From a virus (Duplodnaviria > Caudoviricetes), in IMG/VR virus record IMGVR_UViG_3300022407_003597, positions 1 to 57,731 of that record: a stretch of DNA of 57,731 bases. One strand, written 5' to 3'. How positions within the stretch are numbered: position 1 is the stretch's first letter; each line of letters begins with the position of its first letter. Positions 800 to 42,466 of this stretch are shown piece by piece. The position numbers and the translations under genes were made by a program. The notes under the pieces are model-generated. The model had not been told where the DNA came from. It saw only the letters and a program-made list of their open reading frames with translations, and did no database searches.

Positions 800-1100
800 A
801 ATGGGGCAGTTGGTAGGTATAGACCCAACGTGGAAATCCCATGCCAGCCATGTTCCAAAGTCCGTCTGCGTGGCGGAGTAGGCGACCTGTGTGAAACATA
901 CGAGCCAAGTCCCGTCCAAGTTGCTTGCACTTGTCCGCCCCAAACGGCATGCCAACACAATCAGCGCCGGTGGCTTCGATATAGTCATTCACGAAGTACG
1001 CATCGAGAATGTTGACCCTGACATACTTGATTTCTCCTAAGCGTTTTGCTTGGAGGTGCATGTACTCTTCTATCCAGCGGTAACGGTCTTCAGGTTTCAC
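798..1100 (-). CDS. Hypothetical protein (possible winged-helix)
   Basis: 100-aa ORF; GTGA overlap with the primase stop; followed by a terminator. Confidence 0.7.
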   Translation of the reverse strand: MKPEDRYRWIEEYMHLQAKRLGEIKYVRVNILDAYFVNDYIEATGADCVGMPFGADKCKQLGRDLARMFHTGRLLRHADGLWNMAGMGFPRWVYTYQLPH

Positions 1101-3658
1101 AGCTCATCATCCAGGTTGTAGGCCCAGTCCTCTTCACCACGCAGCACCACACCTCGGATCAGGTCGCGGCCGCTGGCGTCGGTGCCGAAGAAGACCTGCA
1201 TGCCGGCCATGTGCGGTGAGTTGAACTCGTCGTAGAGCTTGATCTTGCCGAAGGGCCTGCGGTTGGTCTGACGGCACCAGTCAACGTAGGCGCGGTAGAA
1301 GTCGACACGATAGGCCGATTCGTCTGGTTTCAGGCGGCACACATCCTGGTCAAGCAAGAACTCGATCAGCGTGTTGGTGCGACGACGCCACTGCCCCATG
1401 AGCTTGTCGTGGACCTTGTTGACCTCGAAGTAGTTGCGTTCCTGCAGACGCTTGGCACCCTGTAGCGCCCAGGCCAGGATTTGCGGCAACTCGGCGTCGA
1501 TGATGCGCTGGGCCAGATTGCGGTCGATCTCGGTGTCCTTGCCGATGAGCGAGTTGCGGAACTCCACGATCAGCCAGCGAGAATAGAACGCCTCGCTGTG
1601 GTCCCTGGTGTTGATGAAGTGGTTGGAGTTGAAGATGTGGGTGGCCGAGTTGTGGAACGTGAATGGCCGCATCGTCGGGTGCCGCGCGGTGAGCCGGTCA
1701 CGGCCGATCACTGACTTGAAGCTGCTGGCCGGTATCGGCTCATCGTCAGGCAGCTCGCCCACCGCGTTCAGGCGCTTGCCTGCCAGATTGGCGATGTAGT
1801 ATTCGTCGTTCCAATTGAACGGTGACACGGCCGTCTGCGTGTCCTTGTGCAGTGTGGCTTCGATGATTTTCATCAGCGTTGATTTGCCGCTGCGTCCAAG
1901 CCCCTTGAACAGCACGGCTTTCTCGAACGTGCCCATCACGCCTAAGACTGTGGCCCCGATGATCTCCTGTACCAGACCTACCTGTTCATCTTTGCCTTCG
2001 CCGTCGAAGGTCTGATCAAGGAATGTCTGGAACAATGGCATCTCGCCAACTTCAGGTCGCACTGGTGCGAGGACGCGCTGTCGATGTTGAGGCCCGATCT
2101 TCTCGCGTTCGATCTTGCCTTCCTTGTTGACGAAATAGAAACGGCCTTCACATGCGAGGCCGACAGGTGCGTCATTGAAGAAATCCTCGTTGCCTTCCAT
2201 CGCAACGGTGTAGGCGTGATTGGCGATTGCCATGTAGTCACTGCGGCGCATGCAGTTCTCAAGGCCGTCGAAGTAGCGCGCCACATCGACAGATGCATCA
2301 TTGGGCAAGGTGCCCTGCCATACGCCACGCAACTTGCTGTAGCTGAACAGCATGCCTTCAACACTCACTGCCTCTTCACCACCACTTCGTTCTTCGATCT
2401 TGGTGAGCAATGCCTTGGCGTAGTTCGCGTGCGTCGGGGCTTCGACCTCAGCATCTTCCTTCTTGGCTTTTTCCTTTGCGGCTTTCAGGGCAACGCGCAG
2501 ATCACCGATGCTGTCACCGTTCAGGCGTTTGATCGCCTTCAGCACCGAGGTTTCATCGGTGGCATCGAGCTTGGACGTGGCAAGTTCGTTGATGATCTTC
2601 TTGATGGCACGCGTGGGCTTGTCTTCGAGAAGGCGCATGTCATCGACGGCCTCCAGCAGGCGTTCGACGATCTCTTCGGCTTCTTCTTCGGTTGGCGTGG
2701 ATGAACGGGACGAGTCCCATCCGGCATCCTTTGCCATCTTGTAGAGGGTGGCAAGCGTGACTTCCTTGCCGCGAGATTTTTTCTGAGCCCCACGCCATAC
2801 CGTGCGAAACTCCTTGGCGTCATGCTTCTCGCTCGTCTCCGACCAGGCGCGTGCAAGGTCTTCGGCACATTCCCAACGAGTCCACTTGAGGGCGAACAGG
2901 ATGTTGCGCCATTCGTCGTAGCTGTAGTCGCTGCTGCCCGGTGTCATCGCTTCGAGTGCGCTCTGCACCCGTTCGATCTCGTCCTTCGTCTCTTCAGGCG
3001 GCGGTATCTCAGCAATGGCGTCGAAGTCATCTGCAGAGTCCGGATCGTCTTCATTCGAGATCGTGCCGTCGCCAATGCGCTCCCAGCCCAGCTCTTCAGC
3101 CTTGCGTTCGAACTCGTGGCAGACGCGCTCCGCGTCATCCTTCGTCAGGATTGGTAGGTCCAGACTGTCCACTGTGAGAGGACTGTCCCAATCCCATTCG
3201 TAGGGCTTGCCGGTGTCGGGGTGGATGTGATCGGCAACGAACTGCTGACCGTTGCCTAGGATTTCCACTCGTTCGCCCTTGCGTGGTCCGTTCGGTGAGC
3301 GGAAGAGGGCGCTGGTGATCTTGCGGAACGGCGTGTCCGCGATGAACATGAAAAGGGCCTTGGGGCGCTTGCCAAATCGCAGGGGCGCATCGGCGATGTT
3401 CTCGCGGACCCAGGTGATCATGTGATCGCTCATCTCGGCGTCGAGTGAATCTATGTCGATGGCCGGGTTGAACTTGGCGATCACGCCGATGCCTGAGTTG
3501 GCGTGGGCCGATTTGAGCAGCTTGGCGTACTGCTCGGGCGTCGTGGCGTAGTTTTGCTCCCATCCCTTGTTCCGAGGCCCCTTGGTGCCAGGCGGGATTG
3601 GGATGATGGCGTAACCTCGCTCGATATAGACGAGGCCGTTGTCTCTGAATGACTTCAT
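1097..3658 (-). CDS. DNA primase-polymerase / PriCT-2 / D5-like SF3 helicase fusion
   Basis: N-terminal Prim-Pol features (IIPIPPGTKGP, AIDID, HIHPDTGKPYEW), PriCT-2-like YDEWRNILFALK, Walker A GLGRSGKST. Confidence 0.9.
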   Translation of the reverse strand: MKSFRDNGLVYIERGYAIIPIPPGTKGPRNKGWEQNYATTPEQYAKLLKSAHANSGIGVIAKFNPAIDIDSLDAEMSDHMITWVRENIADAPLRFGKRPKALFMFIADTPFRKITSALFRSPNGPRKGERVEILGNGQQFVADHIHPDTGKPYEWDWDSPLTVDSLDLPILTKDDAERVCHEFERKAEELGWERIGDGTISNEDDPDSADDFDAIAEIPPPEETKDEIERVQSALEAMTPGSSDYSYDEWRNILFALKWTRWECAEDLARAWSETSEKHDAKEFRTVWRGAQKKSRGKEVTLATLYKMAKDAGWDSSRSSTPTEEEAEEIVERLLEAVDDMRLLEDKPTRAIKKIINELATSKLDATDETSVLKAIKRLNGDSIGDLRVALKAAKEKAKKEDAEVEAPTHANYAKALLTKIEERSGGEEAVSVEGMLFSYSKLRGVWQGTLPNDASVDVARYFDGLENCMRRSDYMAIANHAYTVAMEGNEDFFNDAPVGLACEGRFYFVNKEGKIEREKIGPQHRQRVLAPVRPEVGEMPLFQTFLDQTFDGEGKDEQVGLVQEIIGATVLGVMGTFEKAVLFKGLGRSGKSTLMKIIEATLHKDTQTAVSPFNWNDEYYIANLAGKRLNAVGELPDDEPIPASSFKSVIGRDRLTARHPTMRPFTFHNSATHIFNSNHFINTRDHSEAFYSRWLIVEFRNSLIGKDTEIDRNLAQRIIDAELPQILAWALQGAKRLQERNYFEVNKVHDKLMGQWRRRTNTLIEFLLDQDVCRLKPDESAYRVDFYRAYVDWCRQTNRRPFGKIKLYDEFNSPHMAGMQVFFGTDASGRDLIRGVVLRGEEDWAYNLDDEL

Positions 3659-3696
3659 GTGTTGTTCTCTTGGGTGAAGTTGATGGAGGGACTACT

Positions 3697-3969
3697 TCAC
3701 ACTTCAAGAGGACGCAACAGCCATTCGGCCTTCAAGCTGCCTTTCAGTTGGGATTCGATGTGCTTGGCACTGCTCTCGCTGAAGAAGCCGCGCTTGATGT
3801 AGATCATCACGGTCGTGTGCGAGAGATGCACGATCCGGGCGAATGATCGGATGGAGACTTCATTGGTTTTTGCCATCGTCACGGCGAGGATCATGTATTG
3901 AAGGCGGGCCGATGCCTTTTCGACGCCCTTCAATGACTCGACGTGCTTGGGGAACTGTGTGATATTCAT
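3697..3969 (-). CDS. HTH DNA-binding protein (Cro-like regulator)
   Basis: GGAGA RBS before ATG at 3969; SIRSFARIVHLSHTTVMIYIKRG helix-turn-helix pattern; position upstream of primase as in Chi-like phages. Confidence 0.7.
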   Translation of the reverse strand: MNITQFPKHVESLKGVEKASARLQYMILAVTMAKTNEVSIRSFARIVHLSHTTVMIYIKRGFFSESSAKHIESQLKGSLKAEWLLRPLEV

Positions 3970-3989
3970 GCAACTATCTCCGGGTTGAG

Positions 3990-4040
3990 GCGCACTATAG
4001 CAAAAAAGTCTTGCGGACTCACCATTTGGTGTATAGTTGC
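3990..4040. promoter_or_regulatory. Divergent promoter region
   Basis: Leftward extended -10 TGCTATAGT (3994-4002); rightward TATAGT (4032-4037); palindrome CACCATTTGGTG at 4020-4031. Confidence 0.5.
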
Positions 4041-4139
4041 GGCTCTTTGATTGATTTGCTGACATTGCGCAGCGTGACCGGCGCGGGATTGGCCCGTACT
4101 GTGTCGGTCCCATCCACAGGGCTTGAAACCGGAGAAATC

Positions 4140-4502
4140 ATGAGTTTGGAAGAACAGATCGAGAAGTTGACCAAGGCCGTCGAAGCCAACACGGCGGCAC
4201 TGCTCAAGGGTGGCGGCGGCGCGGCGGCGAGCAGTGGCAGCGGCGAAACCAAGGCCCCCAAGACGACCGCCTCCAAGACGACGACCGCTTACGAGGCCCA
4301 ACACACCAAGAGCGAGGCCAACGCGGTCATCAACGAGGTGAAGGAAAAGCTCGGTGTCGCCAAGGCCAAGGCCATCATCAAGGAAGTCGGCTTTGACCGG
4401 CTGGAGCAGGTCACCAAGCCCGAGCACATCGACCAGCTCTACAAGCTGTCCAAGGAAGCGCTGGGCGAGGAAGAAGGCGGCGGCGACGGCGGCGGGCTGT
4501 AA
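4140..4502 (+). CDS. Replication-module hypothetical protein
   Basis: GGAGA RBS, strong GC3 codon bias, N-terminal coiled coil plus Ala/Gly/Thr linker; ends GDGGGL. Confidence 0.8.
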   Translation: MSLEEQIEKLTKAVEANTAALLKGGGGAAASSGSGETKAPKTTASKTTTAYEAQHTKSEANAVINEVKEKLGVAKAKAIIKEVGFDRLEQVTKPEHIDQLYKLSKEALGEEEGGGDGGGL

Positions 4503-4601
4503 GCCGGCCTGGGCACTGAGAGAACACCCAACGCCTGCCTCTTGAGAGCGGTCGGCGTCGGGTATGAGAAGATATTCATCAACTGAACTGGAGAAATCAA
4601 C

Positions 4602-4784
4602 ATGGCGAAAGAAACCCCGAATTTCAAGAAGGGCGCGAACGTGCTGACGCCCAAGGGCGAAAAAGGCGTTGTGGTCGGCAAGCGCGAGTCCACCATCGGC
4701 TTCTTCTACGAGGTCAACGTCGGCGGCAGCGGCAAGGACAAGATCATCAAGTCCTTCCGGCCCGCCGCCCTGGCCGCGCGCTGA
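4602..4784 (+). CDS. Small basic protein, possible SH3/KOW-like beta fold
   Basis: GGAGA RBS, strong codon bias, FKKGANVLTPKGEKGVVVG pattern; followed by a terminator. Confidence 0.7.
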   Translation: MAKETPNFKKGANVLTPKGEKGVVVGKRESTIGFFYEVNVGGSGKDKIIKSFRPAALAAR

Positions 4785-4804
4785 CACGCGGTTCGTGATC
4801 ATTC

Positions 4805-4829
4805 ACCCCGGCCGTTGCGCCGGGGTTTT
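4805..4829 (+). terminator. Rho-independent terminator
   Basis: ACCCCGGC-cgttgc-GCCGGGGT-TTT. Confidence 0.65.
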
Positions 4830-4865
4830 CATTAGTGCAGCTTTTGGCTGTAGCAGTGAGAACCA

Positions 4866-6194
4866 ATGACCGAACACCGCATCAATCTCTCAACCTTGGC
4901 GAGGATCAAGGACAACTCGGGCCACAGCATCTACGGTCCCAGTTCGTCTCATATGTACCTGCATTGCGCGGGTTCTTTGATCCCGAACCTGCTTGCCAAG
5001 GATACGGCGGGTGATGACGCGGCTTACGGCACGGTGGCGCACGGTGTCACCGAACAGTGGTTGAAGTCCGGGCATCGGCCGGATCATCTTGTTGGCACCA
5101 ATGAGTTTGTCCCGAGCGGCAAGTGGGGCTTTCTGATTGACATTGATGACGAGATGTTGGACTACGCACAGCAGTGCGTCGACTGGGTTGAGTTCCTACC
5201 TGGTGTCCATTACATCGAGCGGCGTGTTGACTTCTCACGGTTGACTCCGATTCCCAATCAGCGCGGCACGGCCGACTTCATTGCCATTGACGACGAGCGT
5301 ATGGTGGTGGCTGATTGGAAGTTCGGTAAGGGTGTGCGTGTGTACGCCGAGGACAATTCACAAGGCATGCTGTACGCTCTTGGCGCGCTGTTCGAGTTCG
5401 ATTCGCGCTACAACGGCAGGCATCGAATCAAGGAGATTGAGATACGCATCGGCCAGCCCCGCATGGACAACTTCGACGTGTGGGTCATCAGCGCTGAGGA
5501 TTTGATCAAGTGGGGCGAGTGGGCGAAGGAGCGCATGGCCGAGGCGTGGGTGATCAACGCCCCTCGGACGCCAGGTACGAGCCAATGCAGGTTTTGTCGT
5601 GTCAACATCGACTGTGCTGCTTACGCCAAGCTGCTAGTTGACATGACCGAAGGGGTCTTTGAGAACCTTGAGCAATCAGTGAGCGAACAAGACATGATTG
5701 CGTTCAAAGAGCGCATCGAAGACCTGGATTTCTCGCCAAATTTCGCTGACGTTGGTAAACTAACGACTGAGCACCTTGAATTGCTGATGCCGTATAGAAC
5801 GACGGCTGAGGGGTGGTGGAATCGAGTTGACAATGAACTGATGCGGCGCATTGCCGCTGGAGAGAGACTGAAGGGCCACAAGATTGTCGAGGGACGTTCT
5901 CGCAGAGCGTTCAATGACAAGGACAAGGCTGTTCAGATGCTGACTGAGAACAAAGTGCCTTACGACAAGGCGGTTGTGAGCGAGCTGGTATCGCCTGCGG
6001 TCGCTGAAAAGCTCCTGCGTGAAGTGGGACTGAAGACGAAGGTACTCCCGAGTTTGTTCGAGGGCTTGATCTATAAGCCACCGGGCAAGCCAACTCTCGT
6101 GCCGTTGCATGACAAGCGGCCCGAGATTGCACCAAGCGACGACGGTGTATTCACTGACGTTGAATCTGAAACCGATGAACCTGAAGGAATCTGA
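4866..6194 (+). CDS. Cas4-like PD-(D/E)XK exonuclease (DUF2800 family)
   Basis: HS..GPSS...C.GS, GTVAH, GTADF, DWKFGKG, Q..LYALG, CRFCR motifs; canonical position before SSB. Confidence 0.88.
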   Translation: MTEHRINLSTLARIKDNSGHSIYGPSSSHMYLHCAGSLIPNLLAKDTAGDDAAYGTVAHGVTEQWLKSGHRPDHLVGTNEFVPSGKWGFLIDIDDEMLDYAQQCVDWVEFLPGVHYIERRVDFSRLTPIPNQRGTADFIAIDDERMVVADWKFGKGVRVYAEDNSQGMLYALGALFEFDSRYNGRHRIKEIEIRIGQPRMDNFDVWVISAEDLIKWGEWAKERMAEAWVINAPRTPGTSQCRFCRVNIDCAAYAKLLVDMTEGVFENLEQSVSEQDMIAFKERIEDLDFSPNFADVGKLTTEHLELLMPYRTTAEGWWNRVDNELMRRIAAGERLKGHKIVEGRSRRAFNDKDKAVQMLTENKVPYDKAVVSELVSPAVAEKLLREVGLKTKVLPSLFEGLIYKPPGKPTLVPLHDKRPEIAPSDDGVFTDVESETDEPEGI

Positions 6195-6195
6195 A

Positions 6196-6837
6196 ATGAG
6201 CAAACTGGAAAAAGTCAAAGACGGGAGGAACTACACCCTGTTCGTCGACGGCAAGGGGGAGAAGTACATCGCCATTCGTGGCGTCCGTGCGTCCTACCCT
6301 TTCATCGGCAGTCCCAGTGAAGGCGAGGACGACGACGGCAACTCGCGCAAGAACTTCCGCGTGGTCGGCATGCTGCCCAAGAGCACACACCGTGAGGCCA
6401 AGGATGCGGTCAAGGCACTGATCCAGGAACTGATCGAGACGAACAAGTCCAAGGTGCCTGCCGACAAGTGGTTTCTCGCGGACGGCAACGAGAAGGAAGA
6501 AGAGGTCATGCATGAGCACTTCCTCGTCACTGCCGCCAACAACAAGCGGCCGGTGGCGCGCGACAACCGCGCCGAGGTCATGGACGACATTGCCAAGATC
6601 GACGATATGTTCTACGGCGGCTGCTGGATCAACATGCTGATCCGGCCCTGGTTCTTCAACGGCAAGGCCAAGGGCAGTTCCAAGACCTTCCCCAAGCGCA
6701 TCTCGGCCAACCTGGTCAGCGTCCAGTTCGTGAAGAACGACGATCCGTTCGGCAACGGCCGCGTCGATGAGAGCGATGTGTGGGACACCGAGGGTGACGG
6801 TGTTGGTGACGATGGCGTGGACGACGACGGCCTGTGA
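6196..6837 (+). CDS. Single-stranded DNA-binding protein (DUF2815 family)
   Basis: VRASYP, FYGGCW, NL.SVQFVK.DDPFG motifs and acidic tail ending DDDGL. Confidence 0.85.
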   Translation: MSKLEKVKDGRNYTLFVDGKGEKYIAIRGVRASYPFIGSPSEGEDDDGNSRKNFRVVGMLPKSTHREAKDAVKALIQELIETNKSKVPADKWFLADGNEKEEEVMHEHFLVTAANNKRPVARDNRAEVMDDIAKIDDMFYGGCWINMLIRPWFFNGKAKGSSKTFPKRISANLVSVQFVKNDDPFGNGRVDESDVWDTEGDGVGDDGVDDDGL

Positions 6838-6859
6838 TCACCTGACGATGTGATCACCT

Positions 6860-6893
6860 AACTCCCGAGTGGCGTTTGCGACTCGGGAGTTTT
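6860..6893 (+). terminator. Hairpin/terminator between SSB and polymerase genes
   Basis: AACTCCCGAGT..ACTCGGGAGTT 11-bp stem followed by TT. Confidence 0.6.
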
Positions 6894-6908
6894 CACTTGG
6901 AGATTCAT

Positions 6909-9017
6909 ATGGCGTACAAAGACAAGCGTCCAACCGCTGTGTTCGATGAAGAGTGCTACCCTAACTATTGGAGCATCGGTTTTAAGTGCGTCGACACGGG
7001 TCGGACAAAATTCTTCGAGATGAAGGACGACGGTCCGCTTGATCGGATGGGTATCAAGAGAATTTTGAAGAACTGGCGTGTCGTTGGCTTCAATTCGACC
7101 AACTACGACATGCCGATGCTGTCACTCGCAATGCGTGATGGCGTCACGAACGGTGAACTCAAGCGGGCCAGTGATGCAATCATTCTGAGCGACATGCGGC
7201 CGTGGCAGTTCTTTGATCACTACGGCACGTCGCTGCCTGACTGGATCGATCACATCGACTTGATGGAGGTGTCCCCTGGATCACCTACGAAACCATCGTT
7301 GAAGGTTTACGCGGGTCGTTTGCACCATAAGACGATGCGTGATCTTCCGTATGAGCCTGACATGGTGATGACTGAGGCCGAACTGGATGGTCCTGACGGC
7401 GTTCGTGTGTATCACGGCAACGATCTGAACGTCACGGACGATTTCCACACTGAGTTGAAAGCACAGATTGAGATTCGTGCTGAGATGAGCGACGTTTATG
7501 GTATTGATCTGCGCAGCAAGAGTGATGCACAGATTGCCGAGGCGGTGATCGTCGCTGAGTGCGAACGCATGAACAAGCGACGGATATACCGTCAAGACAT
7601 TAAGCCTGGCACGTTCTTCTACAAAGCGCCAGAGCACATCAAATTCAAGACGAAGCAGTTCCAGGACATGCTTCGTATGATCACCACGTCTGCTTTCACC
7701 GTTGATCGCGCCGGCATTGTTCACATGCCAAAGGCTCTTGAGGATTTTTCGCTGACCATCAATGGCGGCACGTATCGCATGGGCAGTGGAGGGCTGCACT
7801 CGTCCGAGAGCGCGCAATTCCTTCAGATCGACGACCTGTATGAACTCGTAGACACGGATGCCACGAGCTACTATCCGAAGTTGATCATCGATGGTGGTTA
7901 CTTTCCAGCCCACATCGGCTCAGTGTTCCTTCGAGTCTATCGAGTTCTGTACGAGCGTCGATTGGCTGCAAAGAAGGCTGCGACCATTACTGAGGAACTG
8001 ATCAAGCGGGCCGTTGATCCTGATGAGATTGCCAAACTGAAGTGGATACTGCGCAATAATCAGAACATCGCTGAGACGTTGAAGATTATTCTGAATGGAG
8101 CCTTTGGAAAGCTGGGTTCTCCGTTCTCCAAGATTTATTCTCCATCATTGATGATCCAGACCACGCTGACTGGCCAGCTTGATATGCTGATGCTGATCGA
8201 GGATTTGGAACTTCGAGGATTGCACTGCGTGTCGGCCAACACTGATGGCTTCGTGTCTTACATAGAGCGCTCGCGCCGCGACGAATTCAATGCGGTCGTA
8301 TTCGATTGGGAATGTACCACTGGGCTTAGCACAGAGAAGACGTACTACCGAATTCTCGCCTCGCGCGATGTTAACAACTACATCGCCATCGGTGTCGACG
8401 GCAAGGTCAAGACCAAGGGCACCTATGCTCCTGCTGGTCCTGGACAGAAGGGCGCTGCAGGCATGAAGAAGAATCCGAACGCCGAGGTTTCTATCGATGC
8501 AGTCATTGCTCTGCTGAAGGAAGGAACGCCGATAGATGAGACTGTGCGCAAGTGCGTGGACATTCGCAAGTTCGTGATGATTCGCAAGGTCAAAGGTGGT
8601 GCAGAGAAGGGTGGAGAGAGCATTGGCAAGGTGATACGTTGGGCGTATCGGGCCAATGAAAGGAACGCCATAAACTACAAGATGAATGGGAACACGGTCC
8701 CTCGAACTGAAGGTGCGTGGCCGTTGATGGAACTTCCTGAAGAGTTCCCTGATTGGATTGATCATGATTGGTATGTGCGCGAGGCTCATGCAATCATGCA
8801 GGATATCGGAATGCCGGTCTTAGACCCGACGTTGCGCGGCCGTAAGGGCCATATGAACGCCCGCCTTCCTGATCAGAAGACGTACCACGTTGTCAAACTA
8901 CCAGTTGGTGTTGCGCTTTGTGGCAGAGGACCCGACAGCATGCGAGACGCTTGGATCGAGGATGGCTACCTCGGTCAGAAGATTTGCAGCAAGTGCCTAC
9001 GGGAGCAAACACTGTGA
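6909..9017 (+). CDS. DNA polymerase, family B type, with N-terminal 3'-5' exonuclease
   Basis: Exo motifs FDEECY, GFNSTNYD, YHGND; polymerase motifs DATSYYP, KIILNGAFGK, SANTDG; GGAGA RBS. Confidence 0.88.
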   Translation: MAYKDKRPTAVFDEECYPNYWSIGFKCVDTGRTKFFEMKDDGPLDRMGIKRILKNWRVVGFNSTNYDMPMLSLAMRDGVTNGELKRASDAIILSDMRPWQFFDHYGTSLPDWIDHIDLMEVSPGSPTKPSLKVYAGRLHHKTMRDLPYEPDMVMTEAELDGPDGVRVYHGNDLNVTDDFHTELKAQIEIRAEMSDVYGIDLRSKSDAQIAEAVIVAECERMNKRRIYRQDIKPGTFFYKAPEHIKFKTKQFQDMLRMITTSAFTVDRAGIVHMPKALEDFSLTINGGTYRMGSGGLHSSESAQFLQIDDLYELVDTDATSYYPKLIIDGGYFPAHIGSVFLRVYRVLYERRLAAKKAATITEELIKRAVDPDEIAKLKWILRNNQNIAETLKIILNGAFGKLGSPFSKIYSPSLMIQTTLTGQLDMLMLIEDLELRGLHCVSANTDGFVSYIERSRRDEFNAVVFDWECTTGLSTEKTYYRILASRDVNNYIAIGVDGKVKTKGTYAPAGPGQKGAAGMKKNPNAEVSIDAVIALLKEGTPIDETVRKCVDIRKFVMIRKVKGGAEKGGESIGKVIRWAYRANERNAINYKMNGNTVPRTEGAWPLMELPEEFPDWIDHDWYVREAHAIMQDIGMPVLDPTLRGRKGHMNARLPDQKTYHVVKLPVGVALCGRGPDSMRDAWIEDGYLGQKICSKCLREQTL

Positions 9018-11039: not shown

Positions 11040-11264
11040 ATGAAAAGCAGAGCAGACCCTCATGACTTGCTCCTTCTACTGGAGGGTCGCTGCGCTATGT
11101 CGGCCGCAGAGGCTTCGTGTCTGCTCGGCATGTCCTATTTCACGTACATGCAGTATCGTAACGGCACGCGCCCGTTGCAGCTTTACCATCAACGTCACAT
11201 TGAGGCCGTACTGCTCTTGAGCCGTTCGGCCTTATCGTCTTTGAAGCAGGAGATTCTTAAATGA
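11040..11264 (+). CDS. Small XRE-like HTH protein
   Basis: MSAAEASCLLGMSYFTYMQYRNG.R HTH pattern; ATGA overlap with terS. Confidence 0.7.
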   Translation: MKSRADPHDLLLLLEGRCAMSAAEASCLLGMSYFTYMQYRNGTRPLQLYHQRHIEAVLLLSRSALSSLKQEILK

Positions 11265-11836
11265 GCGAAGACCGTAAGCGTCCTGGTCCTAAGCCCCTCG
11301 ATCAAGAGAGCCAGGCCATGCTCTATGAAGGGTTGAACGTATCGCAGTATGCCGTTCTTTTCAAGATGGACGTGAACACTGTGAAGAAGAAGTTGCATGA
11401 GGTTAATCCGAGTGGCAAACGAAACGGCGTAGACATTTGGGACTTGGCTGAGGCTGCACCGTATCTTGTGAAGCCGGCCTATGACATTGAGAAGTACATC
11501 AAGCAGATGAACCATGCCGATTTGCCTAAGCAACTGACCAAGGAGTTCTGGGCTGGATTGAAGAGTCGCCAAGAGTATCTGACAAACGAAGGTGATCTGT
11601 GGCCTACGGAAAAAGTGATTGCCGATGTTGGTGAATTGGTCAAGTTGATCAAGGTCAGCGTTAGATTGATGCGGGATCGTGTAGAGAAAACGACTGAGTT
11701 GTCTGATCGTCAGCGCAAGCTAATTGACGACTTAGGCGACGACATGCTTTCAGAACTGTTGAGAATGACGGAAGAGAAGTTCAAGCCGAAACCAAAAGCA
11801 GAACCTGAAGAGAAGGACGATGACGATGAACTATGA
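11261..11836 (+). CDS. terS: Terminase small subunit (DUF1441-like)
   Basis: Directly upstream of TerL; N-terminal wHTH, LP..LTKEFW.G, GDLW.TE.V patterns typical of Chi-like TerS; ends DDDDEL. Confidence 0.8.
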   Translation: MSEDRKRPGPKPLDQESQAMLYEGLNVSQYAVLFKMDVNTVKKKLHEVNPSGKRNGVDIWDLAEAAPYLVKPAYDIEKYIKQMNHADLPKQLTKEFWAGLKSRQEYLTNEGDLWPTEKVIADVGELVKLIKVSVRLMRDRVEKTTELSDRQRKLIDDLGDDMLSELLRMTEEKFKPKPKAEPEEKDDDDEL

Positions 11837-18752: not shown

Positions 18753-19040
18753 ATGCCGCAACGTCAAACCCTCCAGTCGATCACGGTCGTGCGCAACAAG
18801 AAGAACGTCGTCGTTCCGCCCGGCCAGATTTTCGATTTCACCGATGAAGAAATCGACGAGCTGATGCCGCAGAACGCCATCACCGCCAAGGTGACGGTGG
18901 ACCTGTCTTCGGACCCTGCTGCCGCTCTGAAGGCCGGCGAGATCACCGATCCCAACAGTTCCGGCCCTGCCACGGAAACGGAAGCCGCCGCACCGGGCAA
19001 GAAACGCAAGGGCACGCCCTCGGACGAGCAACAGCTCTGA
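18753..19040 (+). CDS. Small head-associated protein, paralog A
   Basis: AGGAGA RBS; N-terminus similar to the next gene. Confidence 0.8.
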   Translation: MPQRQTLQSITVVRNKKNVVVPPGQIFDFTDEEIDELMPQNAITAKVTVDLSSDPAAALKAGEITDPNSSGPATETEAAAPGKKRKGTPSDEQQL

Positions 19041-19097: not shown

Positions 19098-19298
19098 ATG
19101 CCCAAGCGCATTGTCAAACAGCCGGTGACGGTCTACCGTCAAGGCAAAGCCGTCTCGCCCAAAATCGGCGATCTCTTCGAGTTCACGGACAAGGAAGTTG
19201 CCGAGATCAGCAGCATGACGCCGAAGGCACTTGTCATGCCCAAGGGCGAAGCGGCCCCGGCCCCGGCCGTCGTTCCGAAGAAGGACGACAAGCTGTGA
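19098..19298 (+). CDS. Small head-associated protein, paralog B
   Basis: AAGGAA RBS; MPKR...VTVYR..K......FEFTD.E pattern. Confidence 0.8.
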   Translation: MPKRIVKQPVTVYRQGKAVSPKIGDLFEFTDKEVAEISSMTPKALVMPKGEAAPAPAVVPKKDDKL

Positions 19299-26696: not shown

Positions 26697-28475
26697 GTGG
26701 CTTCCCAAGTTTATGAATCTGCGATCCCATCTCCATATGGCGAAGAATTCGTCAACGGGGAGATGGCCTTGTCGCCTTCGGAAATCCCCTCAGACACACC
26801 TATCGGAACTCACTACCTGTCGACTCGCCGCGTTTTCAAGTCAGGCGTTTACAACATCAAGGCTTGGATTTATCCAGCAGGCACATTGACGATTGACGGT
26901 GTGACGTTGAACAGCATCAATGGGTTGTTGAAGACGCAGATCAACGTGCCTGCCGGTGAGCAACGTATTGACGTGACCTTGACCAAGAGCACTGAAGGAC
27001 AGGCGTGCTTCGTTGCATTCCTGCTGTTCTATGCCGATCTATCGATCTACGCATCACGGGCAGAAGGCTGGGTGACAGACACTTCGGTTGTTCTTGAGAA
27101 CGAATTGCCGGAAGCCGAAGACCCAAGATTCACCATGAGTGTTTTTCCGTTTACACCCAACTGGGAAAACGGAATTTCGGAACGCTTCACCTACCTGACC
27201 AATGTCATGGTCAGTGAGAGTGGTGCAGAGCAACGCCGCGCCATGCGTGTCTACCCGCGCCGCTCGATCGAAGCCGACTTCTTGCGCGCCAGTATGCAGC
27301 GGTCAAGGCTGGATGCGTTCTTTACTGGTGTCGGATACAAGGAGTTCCTGCTGCCGCTTTGGCATGAGCAGTTCTATTCGACAGACCCTGTGGTCGAGCT
27401 TGAGACACATCACTTCTACACCGTCACGGGTGACACGCTGGATAAGCGTGAGATCGAGGTTGGCACCATCATTCTCATCACCCAGGGCAATCCGCTTGAA
27501 TACGACCTGTGCCTTGTCGGCGGTATCAACCTTGAGACTGGCATGGTGGCATGGGATACCAACCATCGGCCGACACGATTCTGGCCTGCCGGATCGACCA
27601 AGCTGATCCCTGTCGTTCGTGCCTTGCTGGCTGAGAAGACGACGATGAACAACCCGAATGACAGCGTTGGACAGATCAGTCTTCGATTCGATGTGATGGA
27701 GCCGATGAAGTTCTTTTCACATGACTGGAATGAACGGATACCGCTTTTTTCCTTCAAGGCGGACTACCAGACTCCCATTGAGATTGGTTACGACAGATAC
27801 GTGCACGTCCTGGACAATGACGTAGCGATGCCTGAGTACACGGAGCCGGTAAGCCGAGCCATCACGTCTGAGCGTGGTGGCTTCAAGTTCTTCGGTCGTG
27901 ACCAGATGATTGCGTTTCGCAAGTTCATCAGCGGGGCTCGTGGTCGTGCGTTGAACTTCTACGTGCCAACCTACACTCATGATCTGGTCCCTGTGTATCC
28001 ATACGATCTCGGTGGCACGGTTTTCCTTGAGATCAAGCACATCGGTTTCTTGGAGATGATGCCGAACCCGCAATGGGTTCGCAAGATCATTGCAATCGTG
28101 CCAGACGATGGGTCTGAAGTGATCTACCGTGTGATCCTTGGTGTCGATGAGCAGGAAACAGAGCAAGGCGAGAAGATTGAACGTCTTCAGCTCGACGAGC
28201 CGTTGCCGTCCATCCTTGGTAGTCGCATTAAGCGAATCCAGTTCCTGGTCTACGCTCGTTTCGACCAGGATGGCTTTGAACTGAAGCACCACGTTGACAA
28301 CTCTGCTGTTCTACAAACGTCTCTCAGCTTTGTTTCTGTCCCGAACGTCAACGATTTCGACGGCATTGAGTTTGTCACTGATGATGAGGGGACTTGGTTG
28401 AAGATTCTCTATAGCTGGAGAAACTGGGAAGACGTGAGCTGGAGTCAGCTCGAAGATGAATCTTGGGAGCTTTGA
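26697..28475 (+). CDS. Distal tail / virion structural protein
   Basis: Follows TMP; PNW..GI.ER..YLT.V..SESG.EQRR..R..PRR motif. Confidence 0.8.
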   Translation: MASQVYESAIPSPYGEEFVNGEMALSPSEIPSDTPIGTHYLSTRRVFKSGVYNIKAWIYPAGTLTIDGVTLNSINGLLKTQINVPAGEQRIDVTLTKSTEGQACFVAFLLFYADLSIYASRAEGWVTDTSVVLENELPEAEDPRFTMSVFPFTPNWENGISERFTYLTNVMVSESGAEQRRAMRVYPRRSIEADFLRASMQRSRLDAFFTGVGYKEFLLPLWHEQFYSTDPVVELETHHFYTVTGDTLDKREIEVGTIILITQGNPLEYDLCLVGGINLETGMVAWDTNHRPTRFWPAGSTKLIPVVRALLAEKTTMNNPNDSVGQISLRFDVMEPMKFFSHDWNERIPLFSFKADYQTPIEIGYDRYVHVLDNDVAMPEYTEPVSRAITSERGGFKFFGRDQMIAFRKFISGARGRALNFYVPTYTHDLVPVYPYDLGGTVFLEIKHIGFLEMMPNPQWVRKIIAIVPDDGSEVIYRVILGVDEQETEQGEKIERLQLDEPLPSILGSRIKRIQFLVYARFDQDGFELKHHVDNSAVLQTSLSFVSVPNVNDFDGIEFVTDDEGTWLKILYSWRNWEDVSWSQLEDESWEL

Positions 28476-34742: not shown

Positions 34743-34744
34743 TC

Positions 34745-38243: not shown

Positions 38244-38255
38244 CAGGAGAAAATC

Positions 38256-38855
38256 ATGGACATTATTGGAAGCCTGATCGGCGGCGTCCTGAGCGGCGGC
38301 GCGACTGGCCTGATTGGCATCATCGTGCAGCGCTGGTTCGACAACAAGAAACAAAAGAACGATCTTGAGTTGGTCAAGCTGAACCACGAGAACGCCATCG
38401 CGCTCGCCAAGATCGAAAGTGAGTCGGCCAAACAAGTCGCCACGGTGCGCGCCGAAGCTGACATGGCAGTTGCCAGATCGGACGAGAACGCACGGGCCGA
38501 CGAGGCGGCAGCGAAGAGCCTGGTCGCCAGTTACGAGCACGACAAGGCCACTTACGGCGGTGCCAAGGCCGTAGGCCGCAAGGGCTGGGTCGGAGGGCTG
38601 GCCGCGCTGATGATGACAACGGTGGACTTCCTGCGCGGCTCCATCCGGCCTGGCATGACGGTCTACCTCTGCTATGTGGTCACGGTCCTGTTCTACTGGG
38701 CCAAGGACCTCGCTCAACAGAACGGCGTCACGCTGTCGCAGCCTCAGGTCGAGAATCTGCTGCTTCAGATCGTGGCGACCATCCTGTACGTGTTCACGAC
38801 CGTGACGCTTTGGTGGTTCGGTACACGTCCTGCAAACCAAGGCAAGGAGAAGTAA
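38256..38855 (+). CDS. Membrane protein resembling the GTA 3TM holin family
   Basis: N-terminal TM, coiled coil, R..IRP..T and WWFG.R motifs. Confidence 0.65.
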   Translation: MDIIGSLIGGVLSGGATGLIGIIVQRWFDNKKQKNDLELVKLNHENAIALAKIESESAKQVATVRAEADMAVARSDENARADEAAAKSLVASYEHDKATYGGAKAVGRKGWVGGLAALMMTTVDFLRGSIRPGMTVYLCYVVTVLFYWAKDLAQQNGVTLSQPQVENLLLQIVATILYVFTTVTLWWFGTRPANQGKEK

Positions 38856-38857
38856 GC

Positions 38858-39103
38858 ATGCGTGCGAAATTCAAGGTGACGAATGTGGTAGTGGTCAACA
38901 ACGCTGACCAGAGTCAAGAGACTGTGACCTTCGCGGCGGTTGGCCCCAACACCACCTACCCCGCAGACGGCTCGGACGAGAACAACACGTTTGCCAAGTT
39001 CACGCCGACCGCCGACCTGGTCATGGTGATTCGGAACCCGACGCTGCTGGGCAAGTACCAGGTCGGCCAGACTCACTACGCGGACTTCACGCCTGCCGAC
39101 TGA
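38858..39103 (+). CDS. Hypothetical protein
   Basis: AGGAGA RBS; MRAKF.V, E.NTFAKFTP, Y.DFTPA pattern. Confidence 0.75.
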   Translation: MRAKFKVTNVVVVNNADQSQETVTFAAVGPNTTYPADGSDENNTFAKFTPTADLVMVIRNPTLLGKYQVGQTHYADFTPAD

Positions 39104-39119
39104 GCACACCACGCGTTAG

Positions 39120-39154
39120 AAAAGAGAAGGGGAGCACGATGCTCCCCTTTTTTT
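39120..39154. terminator. Bidirectional terminator between convergent operons
   Basis: AAGGGGAGCA-cga-TGCTCCCCTT with A-rich 5' flank and T run. Confidence 0.85.
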
Positions 39155-39172
39155 ATTGGCCGCTGAAACAGG

Positions 39173-39835
39173 TCACGACCCAACGTCACCTTCCTTCACG
39201 AAGACCCCGGACGGCAGCATGGTGCCCTTGCGATCCTTGATCTGGTCCCAAGCCAGCTCCAGGCACTCCACTGGGTCAATGTCCAGCAGGGCACAGGTGT
39301 TGATCAGGCAGACCAGCACATCACCGACGCCGTCCTTGGTTTCGGCCCTGCGACCCTTCTGGATGGCGTCGGCCAGCTCGCCCATCTCACTGACCATCTT
39401 CATGAACTGTGCAGTCGGCGTGCTGTTGGGGATGATCTTGCGAGCCTCAGCCCAGTGGATCACCTCGCTCTGCAGCGCCTCGAACGAGAAGAAGCTACGT
39501 TGCGCCATGTTGTCTCCCTTGGTTTCGTCAAAGAACTTGAGGTAGTCGACAGGAGTCGTCTTCGACACGCCGACCATCCAGGTAAACGCGGCCTTGGCGG
39601 CGTCCGTCACACCTTGCGGTGAGTTCAAAGCGGTCATCCGCTCGTTGATCTGTTCGAGGGTCAGGTTGAACGCTGCCGCGTTCAGCACCGATCCCATGAC
39701 GTAGGCCGCATGCACCCTCAACGAGTGCGTGTGCAGTTCTTCGTCCTTGATTGGCTCTGCGGGAAGCAGTGCCTCCAGAGCTTTGATCTGCTCCACGATG
39801 AGCAAGGTGCTCACTGGTTTTGCTTCAGAGTTCAT
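39173..39835 (-). CDS. MazG-like nucleotide pyrophosphohydrolase with N-terminal extra domain
   Basis: W...R.I, K..SE.GELA, DG.GD..V, CL..A...IKDRKG in the C-terminal 111 aa. Confidence 0.8.
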   Translation of the reverse strand: MNSEAKPVSTLLIVEQIKALEALLPAEPIKDEELHTHSLRVHAAYVMGSVLNAAAFNLTLEQINERMTALNSPQGVTDAAKAAFTWMVGVSKTTPVDYLKFFDETKGDNMAQRSFFSFEALQSEVIHWAEARKIIPNSTPTAQFMKMVSEMGELADAIQKGRRAETKDGVGDVLVCLINTCALLDIDPVECLELAWDQIKDRKGTMLPSGVFVKEGDVGS

Positions 39836-40049
39836 CGTCGGCCTCCTGTTCCAGCTCGGGTGCGCGGTCCATCATGTACTGGCCCACGGCACGACTGATC
39901 TCGGCCACTTGCGAGGTGTCCCAGTAGACGCCACGGAAGCCCCTGCCATCGGGGCGCGCCACGGGGGTGAAGCCAAGCTGCTTGATCAGGTCGGACGTGA
40001 CCGCGACGTTCAGCTTGGCGTTGAGTTCGGATGTGGAAATGGTGCTCAT
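39825..40049 (-). CDS. Hypothetical protein (ends ADDEL)
   Basis: AGGAGA RBS, 74-aa ORF. Confidence 0.75.
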   Translation of the reverse strand: MSTISTSELNAKLNVAVTSDLIKQLGFTPVARPDGRGFRGVYWDTSQVAEISRAVGQYMMDRAPELEQEADDEL

Positions 40050-40058
40050 GTGCTCTCC

Positions 40059-40511
40059 TTAAGAATGAGGGTTGGGTTCCGGGGTGAGAGGTGGTTGTGC
40101 ATTGGGGACGATGCCGCCAGTCACGTTTCTCGGCGGCGGCGGAGAAGGTGCTTTTGGGTAGCCGTTACCACCGCCGCCGCTGCCCGCGAACTGACCGTCG
40201 TTCGCCACAATACACAGCCGGCCTTGGTCAGATGGCGGCTCCTGTGCCTCCAGGTAGATCACGATCCCGGCCAGGTAGTTGATCGCGCCAAGCAGTTCGT
40301 TGATCTTGCGATCGGTCGTGGGCAGGTTCAGCCCTTCCTGGATTTTCTTGATAGCCTGGAAGGCCATGCCGCGTTCGCTGCGCAACAGACGGCTGATGGT
40401 CTGCATGGGCTGCTCTTCGAACGGCAAGCCGCCTGCGTGACGCTCTGCACCCTTGCCCTCGGCGGCTTGAGCGTAGGCCATGTCGAGGACACGGCGTAGT
40501 GATTGGTACAT
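40059..40511 (-). CDS. Phage hypothetical protein, all-alpha
   Basis: GKG.ERHA...PF..Q, QA.KK..E, ELLGAINYLA pattern; Pro/Gly tail. Confidence 0.75.
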   Translation of the reverse strand: MYQSLRRVLDMAYAQAAEGKGAERHAGGLPFEEQPMQTISRLLRSERGMAFQAIKKIQEGLNLPTTDRKINELLGAINYLAGIVIYLEAQEPPSDQGRLCIVANDGQFAGSGGGGNGYPKAPSPPPPRNVTGGIVPNAQPPLTPEPNPHS

Positions 40512-40513
40512 GA

Positions 40514-40783
40514 TTAAAGGTCCTCGTTGAGTTGAACGTCGCTTTGCGACAAGACAACGACCTGACTGACGTTCTCACTGATCTTGTCAGTTGTCAGGCC
40601 GAAGAATGCTTTGACACGCTCAACGTCCTTGCCGTTGTTGCACATCACCGCAAACTGAAGCACGCCATGTTCGTCTTGCACCGTGACGGCCTTGGCGTCC
40701 AGGGCATAGCCGTTGGTGCGCTTGTGAAACAGACCGATCACCTCGACCTGGATCATGTGCGATGCCAATGTCTCAGAACTCAT
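40514..40783 (-). CDS. Hypothetical protein (ends NEDL)
   Basis: Tightly packed ORF with ATGA overlap. Confidence 0.7.
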   Translation of the reverse strand: MSSETLASHMIQVEVIGLFHKRTNGYALDAKAVTVQDEHGVLQFAVMCNNGKDVERVKAFFGLTTDKISENVSQVVVLSQSDVQLNEDL

Positions 40784-40992
40784 AGTTCATCATCCTCTCG
40801 GCCGAAGTGGCACCCATCTTTGGTGCTGACAATTGGTGCCTTGAAAATCAGGTGGTGGTTGCCGGTGGGCGAGTTGCGCGGCTCAGTCCAAGGTGGGAAG
40901 ACCAGATGACAAAGGCCAATCCCCGCCTTTGCGTCCGTCAACTCGAACATGGCGCAACTGCCGCACCTGACGACCGCCGTGGGTGTTCTCAC
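40780..40992 (-). CDS. Small Cys-rich protein (ends EDDEL)
   Basis: GTG start overlapping the upstream stop; CGSC..C..C. Confidence 0.65.
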   Translation of the reverse strand: MRTPTAVVRCGSCAMFELTDAKAGIGLCHLVFPPWTEPRNSPTGNHHLIFKAPIVSTKDGCHFGREDDEL

Positions 40993-41159
40993 GGGAGCCA
41001 GCGCGACAAGAGCGAGAGAGCCATGCCGATGGCGTAGAGCGTGAAGACGGCGGCGTATGCCGCGCTCTTGGCTCGACCTGTTGCCATGTTGGCGATCAGA
41101 ATGACAAGCCAGAAGGCTGTCCAGAAGATTGGGACCAGTGTCCAAAGTTGAATAGTCAT
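40989..41159 (-). CDS. Small two-TM membrane protein (56 aa, below ORF-track cutoff)
   Basis: MTIQLWTLVPIFWTAFWLVILIANMATGRAKSAAYAAVFTLYAIGMALSLLSRWLP; overlaps at both ends. Confidence 0.65.
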   Translation of the reverse strand: MTIQLWTLVPIFWTAFWLVILIANMATGRAKSAAYAAVFTLYAIGMALSLLSRWLP

Positions 41160-41704
41160 AGCTCATCGTCCTCGTTGGTGGTTGAAAGTCGTTTGAAACA
41201 CCCGGCGATCTGTCGAGCCTGGTGCTTGGCATCGTCCATGGCATTGTGAGGTGTGCCTGAGAACTCGATGCCTGGATCGCCCGCCGTGTCCATCAGCGTG
41301 CGAAGATCACGGATATTCCAGAACTTCCACGGTGGTATCAAGCCGTTGCCGGCCACGTCGTAAGCGTGCTCCAGGATCGTCGCTCCGTTACCCCAGACAC
41401 GCACACTGGCCGTGCCATGTGCGCGCATGAAATCAGCCAGGCCCATCAGAACGTCACGCAGGGGCAGCTTGTTCGATGACTGCGAAAACAGTTCCTTAGC
41501 CTTCGGACCTTGCGTGATCCACCAGGCGACGGTGCTGCCGTTGACATTGCCGTACTTGACGGCTTCGGCAAAATCGACCTCAGCGTAGAACTCCTGGGCC
41601 AGCTTGCCAGTTGTGCGGTTGAACATCACCGCGCCGACCGAGAGCACTGCGGCGTTGTAGCCGGTGCCTAGGGTTTCAATGTCGATTGAGCAATCTTCTT
41701 GCAT
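41156..41704 (-). CDS. DEDDh 3'-5' exonuclease (DUF5051/Rv2179c-like), ends EDDEL
   Basis: DIETLG, WGNGA, PW.FW..RD.RT, HNA.DDA..QA; ExoII FD appears missing. Confidence 0.85.
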   Translation of the reverse strand: MQEDCSIDIETLGTGYNAAVLSVGAVMFNRTTGKLAQEFYAEVDFAEAVKYGNVNGSTVAWWITQGPKAKELFSQSSNKLPLRDVLMGLADFMRAHGTASVRVWGNGATILEHAYDVAGNGLIPPWKFWNIRDLRTLMDTAGDPGIEFSGTPHNAMDDAKHQARQIAGCFKRLSTTNEDDEL

Positions 41705-41832
41705 TTCGTCTCCAGGTTTTTGATCTGTCGTTCGATCTGTAGCGCGGTGGCGGTCAACCCGAAACGAACCATCGTCGCATGCTTCGTTCGAAGCTCCTGC
41801 AGCCGTCGTTCGAGTTGGGCCAGCGTGCTCAC
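41668..41832 (-). CDS. Small coiled-coil protein (54 aa)
   Basis: MSTLAQLERRLQELRTKH...; GTGA overlap with upstream gene; fills the gap. Confidence 0.55.
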   Translation of the reverse strand: MSTLAQLERRLQELRTKHATMVRFGLTATALQIERQIKNLETKCKKIAQSTLKP

Positions 41833-42158
41833 GACATGGAACTCCAGCGGGCAACCGATGTGTCGCCTCGGTTATATGTTCCACGGAACATCCGGCCGCT
41901 GTGGTCCATCAAGTAGATGGCGATCCCGACAGGTGTGAAGTCGTCGATGGGGAGCCAGGTCAGCTCCGTGGTCGGTATGTGGTTGTCCACGATGGCGCGG
42001 GCCAGCGCGTAAGTCATCTTGTCACGCAACGGCACGCGGGCGTCCTGCTGATCGTGTAAGGTGATGCTGCCGAGGGTTGAGCTGCGAACGATCAGCTCGT
42101 CGTCGGTCCCTCCTGGTGAGATGACAGTCATATCTCCGATGATGACGATGCGACTCAT
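41829..42158 (-). CDS. Hypothetical protein
   Basis: ATGA overlap; W.PI....P pattern. Confidence 0.65.
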   Translation of the reverse strand: MSRIVIIGDMTVISPGGTDDELIVRSSTLGSITLHDQQDARVPLRDKMTYALARAIVDNHIPTTELTWLPIDDFTPVGIAIYLMDHSGRMFRGTYNRGDTSVARWSSMS

Positions 42159-42466
42159 AGTTCGTCGTCCCCTTCCATGATCGTCTCAAGCATCACAAAG
42201 CCGTTGGACAGTTCCTTGCGCTTCTTGTCGATCCACTTGCCTTTGTAAGTCCCGAGAGCTGCGAACTCATGGGCGTCAACCCATTGCATGATGCATACGT
42301 TGGCCTCAGTGGAGAGAGTGAGCCGCCCTCGCTTGACGCCAAGCAGCGCGGTCTTGTGGATCAACGGTACACCAGCCTCGTTCAATGCCTGGCACACAGC
42401 CAGGGAGGCTACTGACGTGCTCTGCATTGTCTTCAGATCGTTGTAAGACTTGCTGATGGTGATCAC
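42155..42466 (-). CDS. Hypothetical protein (ends GDDEL)
   Basis: AGGAGA RBS, GTGA overlap. Confidence 0.7.
   Translation of the reverse strand: MITISKSYNDLKTMQSTSVASLAVCQALNEAGVPLIHKTALLGVKRGRLTLSTEANVCIMQWVDAHEFAALGTYKGKWIDKKRKELSNGFVMLETIMEGDDEL

Follow-up and report, generated by a model that had tools for sequence, protein, structure and literature searches.

Why should six unrelated proteins of a single bacteriophage end in exactly the same four residues? The question is raised by the virus record IMGVR_UViG_3300022407_003597 of IMG/VR (Duplodnaviria; Caudoviricetes), a complete-looking record of 57.7 kb, the whole of which (57,731 nucleotides) is referred to here as the window. A first-pass annotation, made from the sequence alone, had pointed out that the primase-helicase, the small terminase (TerS), an exonuclease and three further proteins close with Asp-Asp-Glu-Leu (DDEL), and had proposed a protein-level tag common to unrelated proteins. 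All six ends could be recovered, at positions 1097, 11836, 39825, 40780, 41156 and 42155, each followed by a TGA stop codon and with tail codons that differ synonymously among the six, and the near variants DDDGL, GDGGGL, DEQQL, DDKL, ESWEL, NEDL and EGGEL were likewise all present. When all open reading frames (ORFs) of at least 40 amino acids (aa) in the six frames were considered (519 ORFs), exactly these six ended in DDEL followed by TGA, and no other DDEL end was found among the window ORFs of this size in any frame. On the basis of composition, 0.0014 C-terminal DDEL ends are expected per 85 proteins (Poisson probability of six or more, 1.2e-20). Three of the carriers are the primase-helicase, TerS and an Rv2179c-like 3'-5' exonuclease, and the other three are small proteins without a Pfam or PHROG match.

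The window represents a Chi/Nazgul-like, Casjensviridae-like siphophage. Its large terminase (TerL) shares 55-59 % identity with those of Chi-, Redjac- and Enc34/Nazgul-like siphophages (Casjensviridae), and near-identical DNA was absent from the phage collection, with megablast of the TerS-TerL DNA giving no match and blastn of the 39.8-42.5 kb region just four short matches. Three parts can be distinguished in the genome: on the left, a replication module with the primase-helicase on the minus strand, followed on the plus strand by an exonuclease, a protein that binds single-stranded DNA (SSB), a polymerase, a VRR-NUC-like gene and an SNF2 helicase; a lambda-like packaging, head and tail block; and, at 39-52 kb, a long minus-strand operon of small early genes. 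A TerL-anchored scan yielded fifty-nine loci, and seventeen of their records, the long ones, were analysed whole or near-whole (G008, G015 and G018 were left out of this analysis), giving a total set of 1207 called genes in eighteen genomes. Loci of IMG/VR anchored on the exonuclease (at most 39 % identity) were too distant to be treated as orthologs and served as outgroup and baseline only.

Excess of acidic C-terminal ends

Three definitions were applied to the C-terminal end. A tail was counted as strict when the protein closed with [DE]3L, and as loose when its final residue was L, I, F or M and two or more D/E stood between positions -5 and -2, while the broader definition required a terminal Leu, at least two D/E in positions -8 to -2 and no K/R in positions -5 to -2. 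Among twelve genomes, including the window, 126/798 called genes carry a loose tail, where 11.7 are expected from composition, with between five and fifteen per genome and a share of 12-22 % of the called genes in most genomes. The excess is specific to the C-terminus. Counted against the null model in the same twelve genomes, the strict [DE]3L string occurs at sixty C-termini where 0.12 are expected, and inside proteins it is observed 30 times against an expectation of 30.9. Using the broader definition, 149/1207 called genes of the eighteen genomes are tailed, compared to 27/7254 rejected non-gene ORFs. Unrelated phages (thirty loci) yielded strict tails in 1/363 and loose tails in 25/363 ORF-genes, the latter mostly on replication proteins, and the same greedy caller on the window gave 5/73 and 11/73, respectively.

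The profile of the 126 tails shows L in 91 % at position -1, E (51 %) or D (36 %) at -2, D (51 %) or E (29 %) at -3, D (56 %) or E (21 %) at -4 and D (29 %) or E (25 %) at -5, a pattern that is partly forced by the definition, with the exception of the preference for Leu among L/I/F/M and the D-D-E order. The residues preceding the tails are rich in A, G, S, T and P. In the AlphaFold2 model of the SSB, the OB core has a predicted local distance difference test (pLDDT) score above 90 and residues ~220 to 242 one below 55, and the tail is thus predicted to be flexible or disordered.

BLAST clustering of the 1207 proteins placed the tail-bearers in fifty-seven families, many of which are private to one genome. 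The conserved carriers by the loose rule are the primase-helicase (14/18 orthologs), the DUF2800/PD-(D/E)XK exonuclease (12/18), the SSB (12/18) and TerS (11/18), and in 17/18 SSB orthologs an acidic run is followed by a final L or I. Further conserved carriers include families of ~325-330 aa, which are ParB-like in named relatives, the protein after the primase gene, and the protein at the position of lambda FI. Most of the carriers handle DNA. The coding sequences (CDS) annotated by the depositors of named phages follow the same pattern, which is therefore independent of our own gene caller. In Pseudomonas phage vB_Pae-SS2019XI, 9/47 CDS of the non-structural half end in an acidic run and L or F (primase, exonuclease, DUF2815 SSB, RdgC-like and ParB-like proteins and four hypotheticals), and the tail is found in 0/14 of the small plus-strand genes GP056-GP069. 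The Salmonella Chi-like phage KFS-SE1 has [DE]3V at the end of 9/72 annotated CDS, namely the primase, the protein next to it, the exonuclease, SSB, TerS, the FI-position protein, an RdgC-like protein and two hypotheticals. Tails occur on 7/22 CDS of UF_RH7 (DDDL/DGL, including the SNF2 helicase), 6/22 CDS of XAP3 and 4/16 CDS of Redjac together with an unannotated TerS ORF, and the RusA-like and ParB-like proteins of Burkholderia phage AH2 end in DDDL and ADDL.

Lineage dialects and gene junctions

The residues that close the tail differ from one genome to the next and are shared among the carriers within a genome. The window uses DDEL, two Pseudomonas phages use DDDL, the Chi-like phages, Redjac and XAP3 use DDEV, and GGL or AAGL is found elsewhere. 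Where the penultimate residue is D or E, it is E in 7/9 cases in the window, 12/13 in G004 and 11/13 in G010, and D in 11/11 cases in G007 and 7/7 in G009 (E versus D across genomes, chi-square p = 1.7e-6), with a proteome D/(D+E) of 0.48-0.55 in all genomes compared. Tails outside four core families match the dialect of the core (27+15 concordant, 7+5 discordant; Fisher p = 1.4e-4), and the observed homogeneity was reached in 0/5000 runs of a within-family permutation. In KFS-SE1, Redjac and XAP3, every carrier has Val instead of Leu as its terminal residue, and a reverse cloning primer for the SSB of phage Enc34 (ORF6) implies an Asp-Glu-Val end, as printed in the available text of PMC5686142, which fits the DDEV dialect. 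In each of G005, G013, G016 and G017, seven to ten proteins end in GL (e.g. DDMGGL, DEYNGL and DPAAGL). DDEV is common to XAP3, which has a Xanthomonas host, and the Chi-like and Redjac phages of Enterobacterales hosts. A divergent case is G014 (loci L134-L136), where 0/70 called proteins end in Leu and the core replication and packaging proteins end in DDPFA, DDDFD and IGWDE, which may amount to a dialect built on Phe and lengthened by one residue.

Is it the peptide that is retained, or the DNA that encodes it? All six DDEL ends had been held to overlap the next start, so that the string GAG GAY GAY GAR CTA TGA might be kept as a Shine-Dalgarno (SD) sequence and overlapping ATG, with the peptide as by-product. 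A four-nucleotide (nt) overlap does exist in four of the six (GTGA at 1097; ATGA at 40780, 41156 and 42155), with an SD-like GAGGA, GGGGA or AGGAGG just before the DDEL codons, but not in TerS or in the ORF ending at 39825. The ATG in the CTATGA of TerS is out of frame with TerL, whose ORF opens at ATG 11820 or 11826, within the tail codons GAT GAC or GAT GAA, and the 39825 ORF ends in CTCTGA, the first ATG of the next ORF (39835) lying within GAT GAA. Also in line with such a cassette are the TGA stops of 12/13 loose tails in the window and the over-use of CTA as terminal Leu codon (22 observed against 5 expected), the sole nucleotide-level signal, which is as expected if CTA is selected because CTA TGA yields an overlapping ATG. 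To this extent the junctions resemble ATGA/GTGA translational coupling. They differ from it in that the tail is equally frequent without an overlap and with TAA stops. Among 84 curated window genes, twenty-seven junctions allow a 4-nt overlap, of which six are tailed and twenty-one are not, the latter genes ending in K, V, P, Q, S, A or T, and coupling therefore does not need DDEL. Of the 126 tails, 71 stand at junctions where no overlap is possible (59 at a gap even with the longest downstream ORF, nine convergent and three at a contig end), and several primase-helicase genes are operon-terminal, before a terminator-like hairpin, and still tailed. Tails close 19 % of the genes at junctions that allow an overlap and 15 % of those at gaps (Fisher p = 0.067), and 16, 17 and 11 % of the genes with TGA, TAA and TAG stops, respectively. 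TAA closes 11/15 tails in G004, including one ADDEL end with GGAGG after the stop, the SSB tail of the window is followed by a gap of at least 38 nt, and the Asp and Glu codons of the tails match the usage of each genome (p = 0.64 and 0.10). The cassette accounts for the choice of codon and not for the peptide, and as the cause of the motif it is very improbable. Equally hard to credit is the notion that genes were inserted by recombination within the last codons of the genes that they replaced, inheriting the 3' end with no selection for the peptide itself. The mosaic nature of phage genomes and the many carriers that belong to single-genome families would suit this, but the residues are retained although synonymous sites have reached the equilibrium of the genome, orthologs retain the tail across 40-60 % protein divergence, and the six window junctions lack DNA similarity past the motif. 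Readings as a capsid-targeting signal, a secretion signal or a termination context were rejected on inspection, as they fit neither the replication enzymes among the carriers nor the independence from the stop codon. The proposal of a protein-level tag is strongly supported, and it can be stated with high confidence that the motif is selected at the protein level.

Tail-bearing proteins along the window

The Prim-Pol/DUF5906 primase-helicase (1097..3658, minus strand) ends in LDDEL-TGA, its GTGA overlap being shared with a downstream gene of 100 aa (798-1100), and the figure of fourteen tailed orthologs given above for this family counts L, I, F or M as last residue. The small protein encoded after the primase gene (4140..4502, plus strand) has the weak variant GDGGGL, and its orthologs end in EQEDV, EAEEV and AEEDM and, at the orthologous position in named phages, in DDDEV, EGDGL or DDDDDI. 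Judging from its homologs, which lie on the plus strand, 4140-4502 is a real gene. The longest and best-scoring ORF at this site is on the minus strand (3966-4802), yet the homologs in relatives match the shorter plus-strand ORF, and the former is probably a shadow ORF that gene callers would mis-annotate. The DUF2800/PD-(D/E)XK exonuclease (4866..6194, plus) has a degenerate tail, EPEGI. It is followed by the Enc34-type (T7 gp2.5-like) SSB (6109..6837, plus; PF10991, E = 1.6e-15; phrog_112), which ends in DDDGL, with the longest-ORF start of the next gene 38 nt downstream. In the longest SSB ORF, the model has low confidence over the initial 25-30 residues, which are not matched in orthologs, and the true start is probably the ATG of Met-Ser-Lys ~35 codons in. 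The family-A DNA polymerase (6909..9017, plus) ends in REQTL after a CxxC. In the alignment that includes it, a polymerase subgroup shares a conserved end, Cys-x-Lys-Cys-[RK]-[RK]-E-[DS]-x-Leu, represented in the window by CSKCLREQTL. This end may form a small C-terminal element that binds metal, and it is distinct from the flexible acidic tail.

The TerS gene (11261..11836, plus) ends in DDDDEL-TGA, with the tail codons overlapping the 5' end of the TerL ORF (11820-13913). In a wider set, 40/52 TerS orthologs end in Leu and a further seven in Ile or Phe, each of the three stop codons being in use, and the relative L033 retains DDQTL and has a separate SD downstream of it. In 51/52 loci the TerL frame continues through the TerS stop without interruption, and the TerL codon over the terminal Leu of TerS encodes Tyr (29) or Phe (17) in 46/51 loci. 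One stretch of DNA (11816-11836 in the window, and loci L032-L089) thus holds two conserved features. Just past the major capsid gene, at the lambda FI position, the window encodes two phrog_7559 paralogs, both with an acidic end capped by Leu: DEQQL at 18753..19040 and DDKL at 19098..19298 (both plus). The protein at the latter position ends in GDEDL, GADDL, AEDEV, EDDEV or KEEDL in relatives. KFS-SE1, Redjac, XAP3 and UF_RH7 have one gene at the FI position, which carries the local dialect. The distal tail protein (26697..28475, plus) ends in ESWEL, an end found in just 1/17 family members, and was set aside as probably coincidental.

The remaining tail-bearers are encoded on the minus strand of the early operon. 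A protein of 74 aa without a known family (39825..40049) ends in ADDEL-TGA, and the tail is present in 3/3 members of its BLAST family. The neighbouring protein of 89 aa (40514..40783) has the near variant NEDL-TAA. It adjoins a Cys-rich protein of ~70 aa (40780..40992; EDDEL-TGA), the longest ORF of which reaches 41244 with a 5' part that is not coding-like. This ORF is probably 70 aa (from GTG 40992) or 56 aa long rather than 154 aa, because the upstream part scores negative for coding and holds an ORF of 56 aa with two predicted transmembrane segments (40989-41159, minus). The latter encodes two hydrophobic helices between the Rv2179c-like exonuclease and the small DDEL protein, with an ATGA overlap upstream (with the exonuclease) and a GTGA overlap downstream, and its coding score beats that of the overlapping part of the 154-aa ORF. 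In the Rv2179c-like 3'-5' exonuclease itself (41156..41884; EDDEL-TGA) the tail is an extension of ~9 aa, the Pfam domain stopping at residue 228 of 242. The tail is an add-on to the domain, occurring in 6/6 members of the clade and in 0/30 distant homologs of other phages. A protein of 103 aa (42155..42466) ends in GDDEL-TGA and its weak homologs end in VEDEL, EDDEL and DDEEL. A DUF1643 protein (44183..44656) ends in the loose variant ALEDF and a protein of 95 aa (45816..46103) in the near variant EGGEL. The operon also encodes a MazG-like pyrophosphatase (39173-39835) and a protein with a weak NUDIX-like match (43272-43730), both minus and both tail-less.

Proposed docking on a shared partner and its rivals

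What might such a peptide do? Since all carriers of a genome have the same variant, and the variants change in concert, we infer one co-evolving reader, probably encoded by the phage. On balance, the tails would appear to be docking motifs that act at the protein level by the principle of the acidic tails of T7 gp2.5 and gp4, with one such shared partner. The motif would consist of a disordered run of two to five Asp/Glu with a free C-terminal hydrophobic residue, added to many unrelated proteins, and would dock by charge and a single hydrophobic/carboxylate anchor onto a basic pocket of the partner. Docking would concentrate replication, recombination and packaging proteins in one place, where clients would compete or exchange on the partner, and what T7 has on its SSB/helicase pair would have spread here to most of the proteins that serve DNA metabolism or act as packaging accessories, with ten to fifteen clients.

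The tails of T7 gp2.5 and gp4 end in Phe, and the Pfam family set of gp4 differs from the Prim-Pol/DUF5906 of the primase-helicase in the window. In T7 as in the present system, the SSB and the primase-helicase each have a disordered acidic tail whose last residue is hydrophobic. The two systems differ in the last residue, which is Leu (91 % of 126) or, in Chi-like phages, Val instead of the aromatic Phe, and in the number of carriers, ten to fifteen per genome against two, which here include the terminase, exonucleases, ParB-like and RdgC-like proteins and small unknowns. The SSBs are also alike in structural type, that of the window belonging to PF10991 and Enc34 ORF6 being called gp2.5-like in the available text of PMC5686142. 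In T7, gp4 and gp2.5 compete through their acidic tails for two basic patches on the gp5 polymerase, to which the tails bind (bioRxiv 10.64898/2026.05.20.726333), and the gp2.5 tail competes with single-stranded DNA for the OB fold (PMC10359462). The orthologous Enc34 ORF6 SSB likewise has an acidic tail (16 of the last 29 residues), which lies in the beta-sheet groove of a neighbour in the crystal; unlike the present analysis, the available text of that paper discusses the tail solely for the SSB and does not mention it on other proteins of the phage (PMC5686142).

Other systems share parts of this organisation. The bacterial SSB tip, DDDIPF, is a portable docking peptide of DNA metabolism in which one tail-bearer serves many readers. 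It resembles the present tails in its acidic run, terminal hydrophobic residue and free carboxylate, but the polarity is inverted here, where many tail-bearers imply few readers, and the Pro-Phe is missing. No window protein ends in DDDIPF. In XAP3 (L156), a 'Cas4-like' protein of 124 aa (4623-4997) ends in DDDIPF beside six DDEV proteins, so that two tail types occur in one phage. Clients of sliding clamps (beta-clamp motif QL[SD]LF-like, PIP box and T4 gp45 client tails) have hydrophobic motifs. As here, many unrelated clients use one short terminal motif on one hub, which allows competition and hand-off, and in contrast the consensus here is the acidic D-D-E-L. A PHROG family described as a clamp was matched by 0/50 scanned window ORFs. 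The xDEL of KDEL/HDEL-type signals is read by a eukaryotic endoplasmic reticulum receptor, and the likeness was set aside as one of letters only, as this is the record of a tailed bacteriophage and its relatives use DDDL, DDEV and GGL.

Three candidate readers may be put forward on an equal footing: the polymerase, by analogy with T7 gp5, the groove of the SSB, in view of the contact in the crystal, and, for TerS and the protein at the FI position, TerL. PHROG scans of twenty further early proteins revealed no hub-like candidate. Complex prediction of the polymerase with the last 45 residues of the SSB, using alignments, gave an interaction score (ipSAE) of 0.00 twice, in runs without controls, and counts neither way.

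Two alternatives to a shared phage-encoded reader have to be weighed. The tails may have no common reader and act in cis or generically, as DNA mimics in auto-inhibition, as solubility bristles or as shields against host proteases directed at the C-terminus. Acidic C-termini do resist tail-specific proteolysis. The Enc34 SSB without its tail binds double-stranded as well as single-stranded DNA (PMC5686142), which would suit a cis-acting mimic. A generic charge effect, however, predicts neither the 91 % Leu cap nor the position-specific D-D-E order, nor that the final one or two residues switch together in all carriers of a genome (L to V; E to D to G), and this explanation is considered unlikely, though it carries more weight than the next. 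In the latter, a host factor reads the tail, either as degron or anti-degron for a host protease or adaptor, or as a mimic of the bacterial SSB tip that hijacks the partners of host SSB. The resemblance of an acidic run with a hydrophobic alpha-carboxylate to the SSB tip would favour this, as would the separate XAP3 protein with a canonical DDDIPF end and the DDDL shared by two Pseudomonas aeruginosa phages of different genera. It is nonetheless rather improbable, as XAP3 on Xanthomonas has DDEV in common with the Chi-like and Redjac phages on Enterobacterales, dialects would not arise from a reader that is conserved from host to host, and the Pro-Phe of the SSB tip closes none of the tails.

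Several points weigh against selected tails that dock on one phage-encoded partner. Genes in the relatives' records were called with a simple codon-score method, which is heuristic and crude. The TerS end overlaps a conserved Tyr/Phe of TerL, so that selection there cannot be attributed to the TerS frame. Common descent of the genomes inflates the dialect statistics, and for single-genome families alone the dialect test is non-significant (13:5 versus 1:2, p = 0.25). XAP3 sharing DDEV across hosts implies that the dialect follows the phage lineage and not the host, but it is a single cross-host case. The carriers are largely DNA-binding, as would be expected of cis-acting DNA mimics. The zip-code for one hub that the first-pass annotation had envisaged is backed indirectly by the genome-specific dialects, but the presence/absence search gave no reader: no gene family is present in all tail-rich and absent from tail-poor genomes, a contrast that dissolved because the 'poor' genomes use the GL dialect. 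Furthermore, by eye, the type of polymerase and the subtype of SSB do not track the dialect.

Acidic docking tails are already known on SSBs and on T7 gp4, that is, on single proteins. A search of the literature, largely at the level of titles and abstracts, found no report of one end of four to five residues on ten to fifteen unrelated proteins per genome across a phage family, with dialects. Here, the same short end closes unrelated folds across a whole phage family, and each lineage has its own spelling. It is tentatively suggested that one phage-encoded reader binds the acidic-Leu/Val carboxylate on at least ten clients and organises replication, recombination and packaging across the Casjensviridae, as a hub that would work like the SSB tip or the PIP box but with the polarity inverted, and with the dialects as possible compatibility barriers between co-infecting relatives. 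The cultured members, among them Chi-like phages on Salmonella or E. coli and the Pseudomonas phages SS2019XI and UF_RH7, are suited to direct testing. If one reader exists, it would determine how replication, recombination and packaging are wired in Chi-like phages and provide a simple sequence rule to predict clients, as well as a first functional clue for dozens of hypothetical early proteins, as clients of a DNA-metabolism hub. It would also offer a natural example of motif-reader co-evolution, which may limit the exchange of modules between phages.

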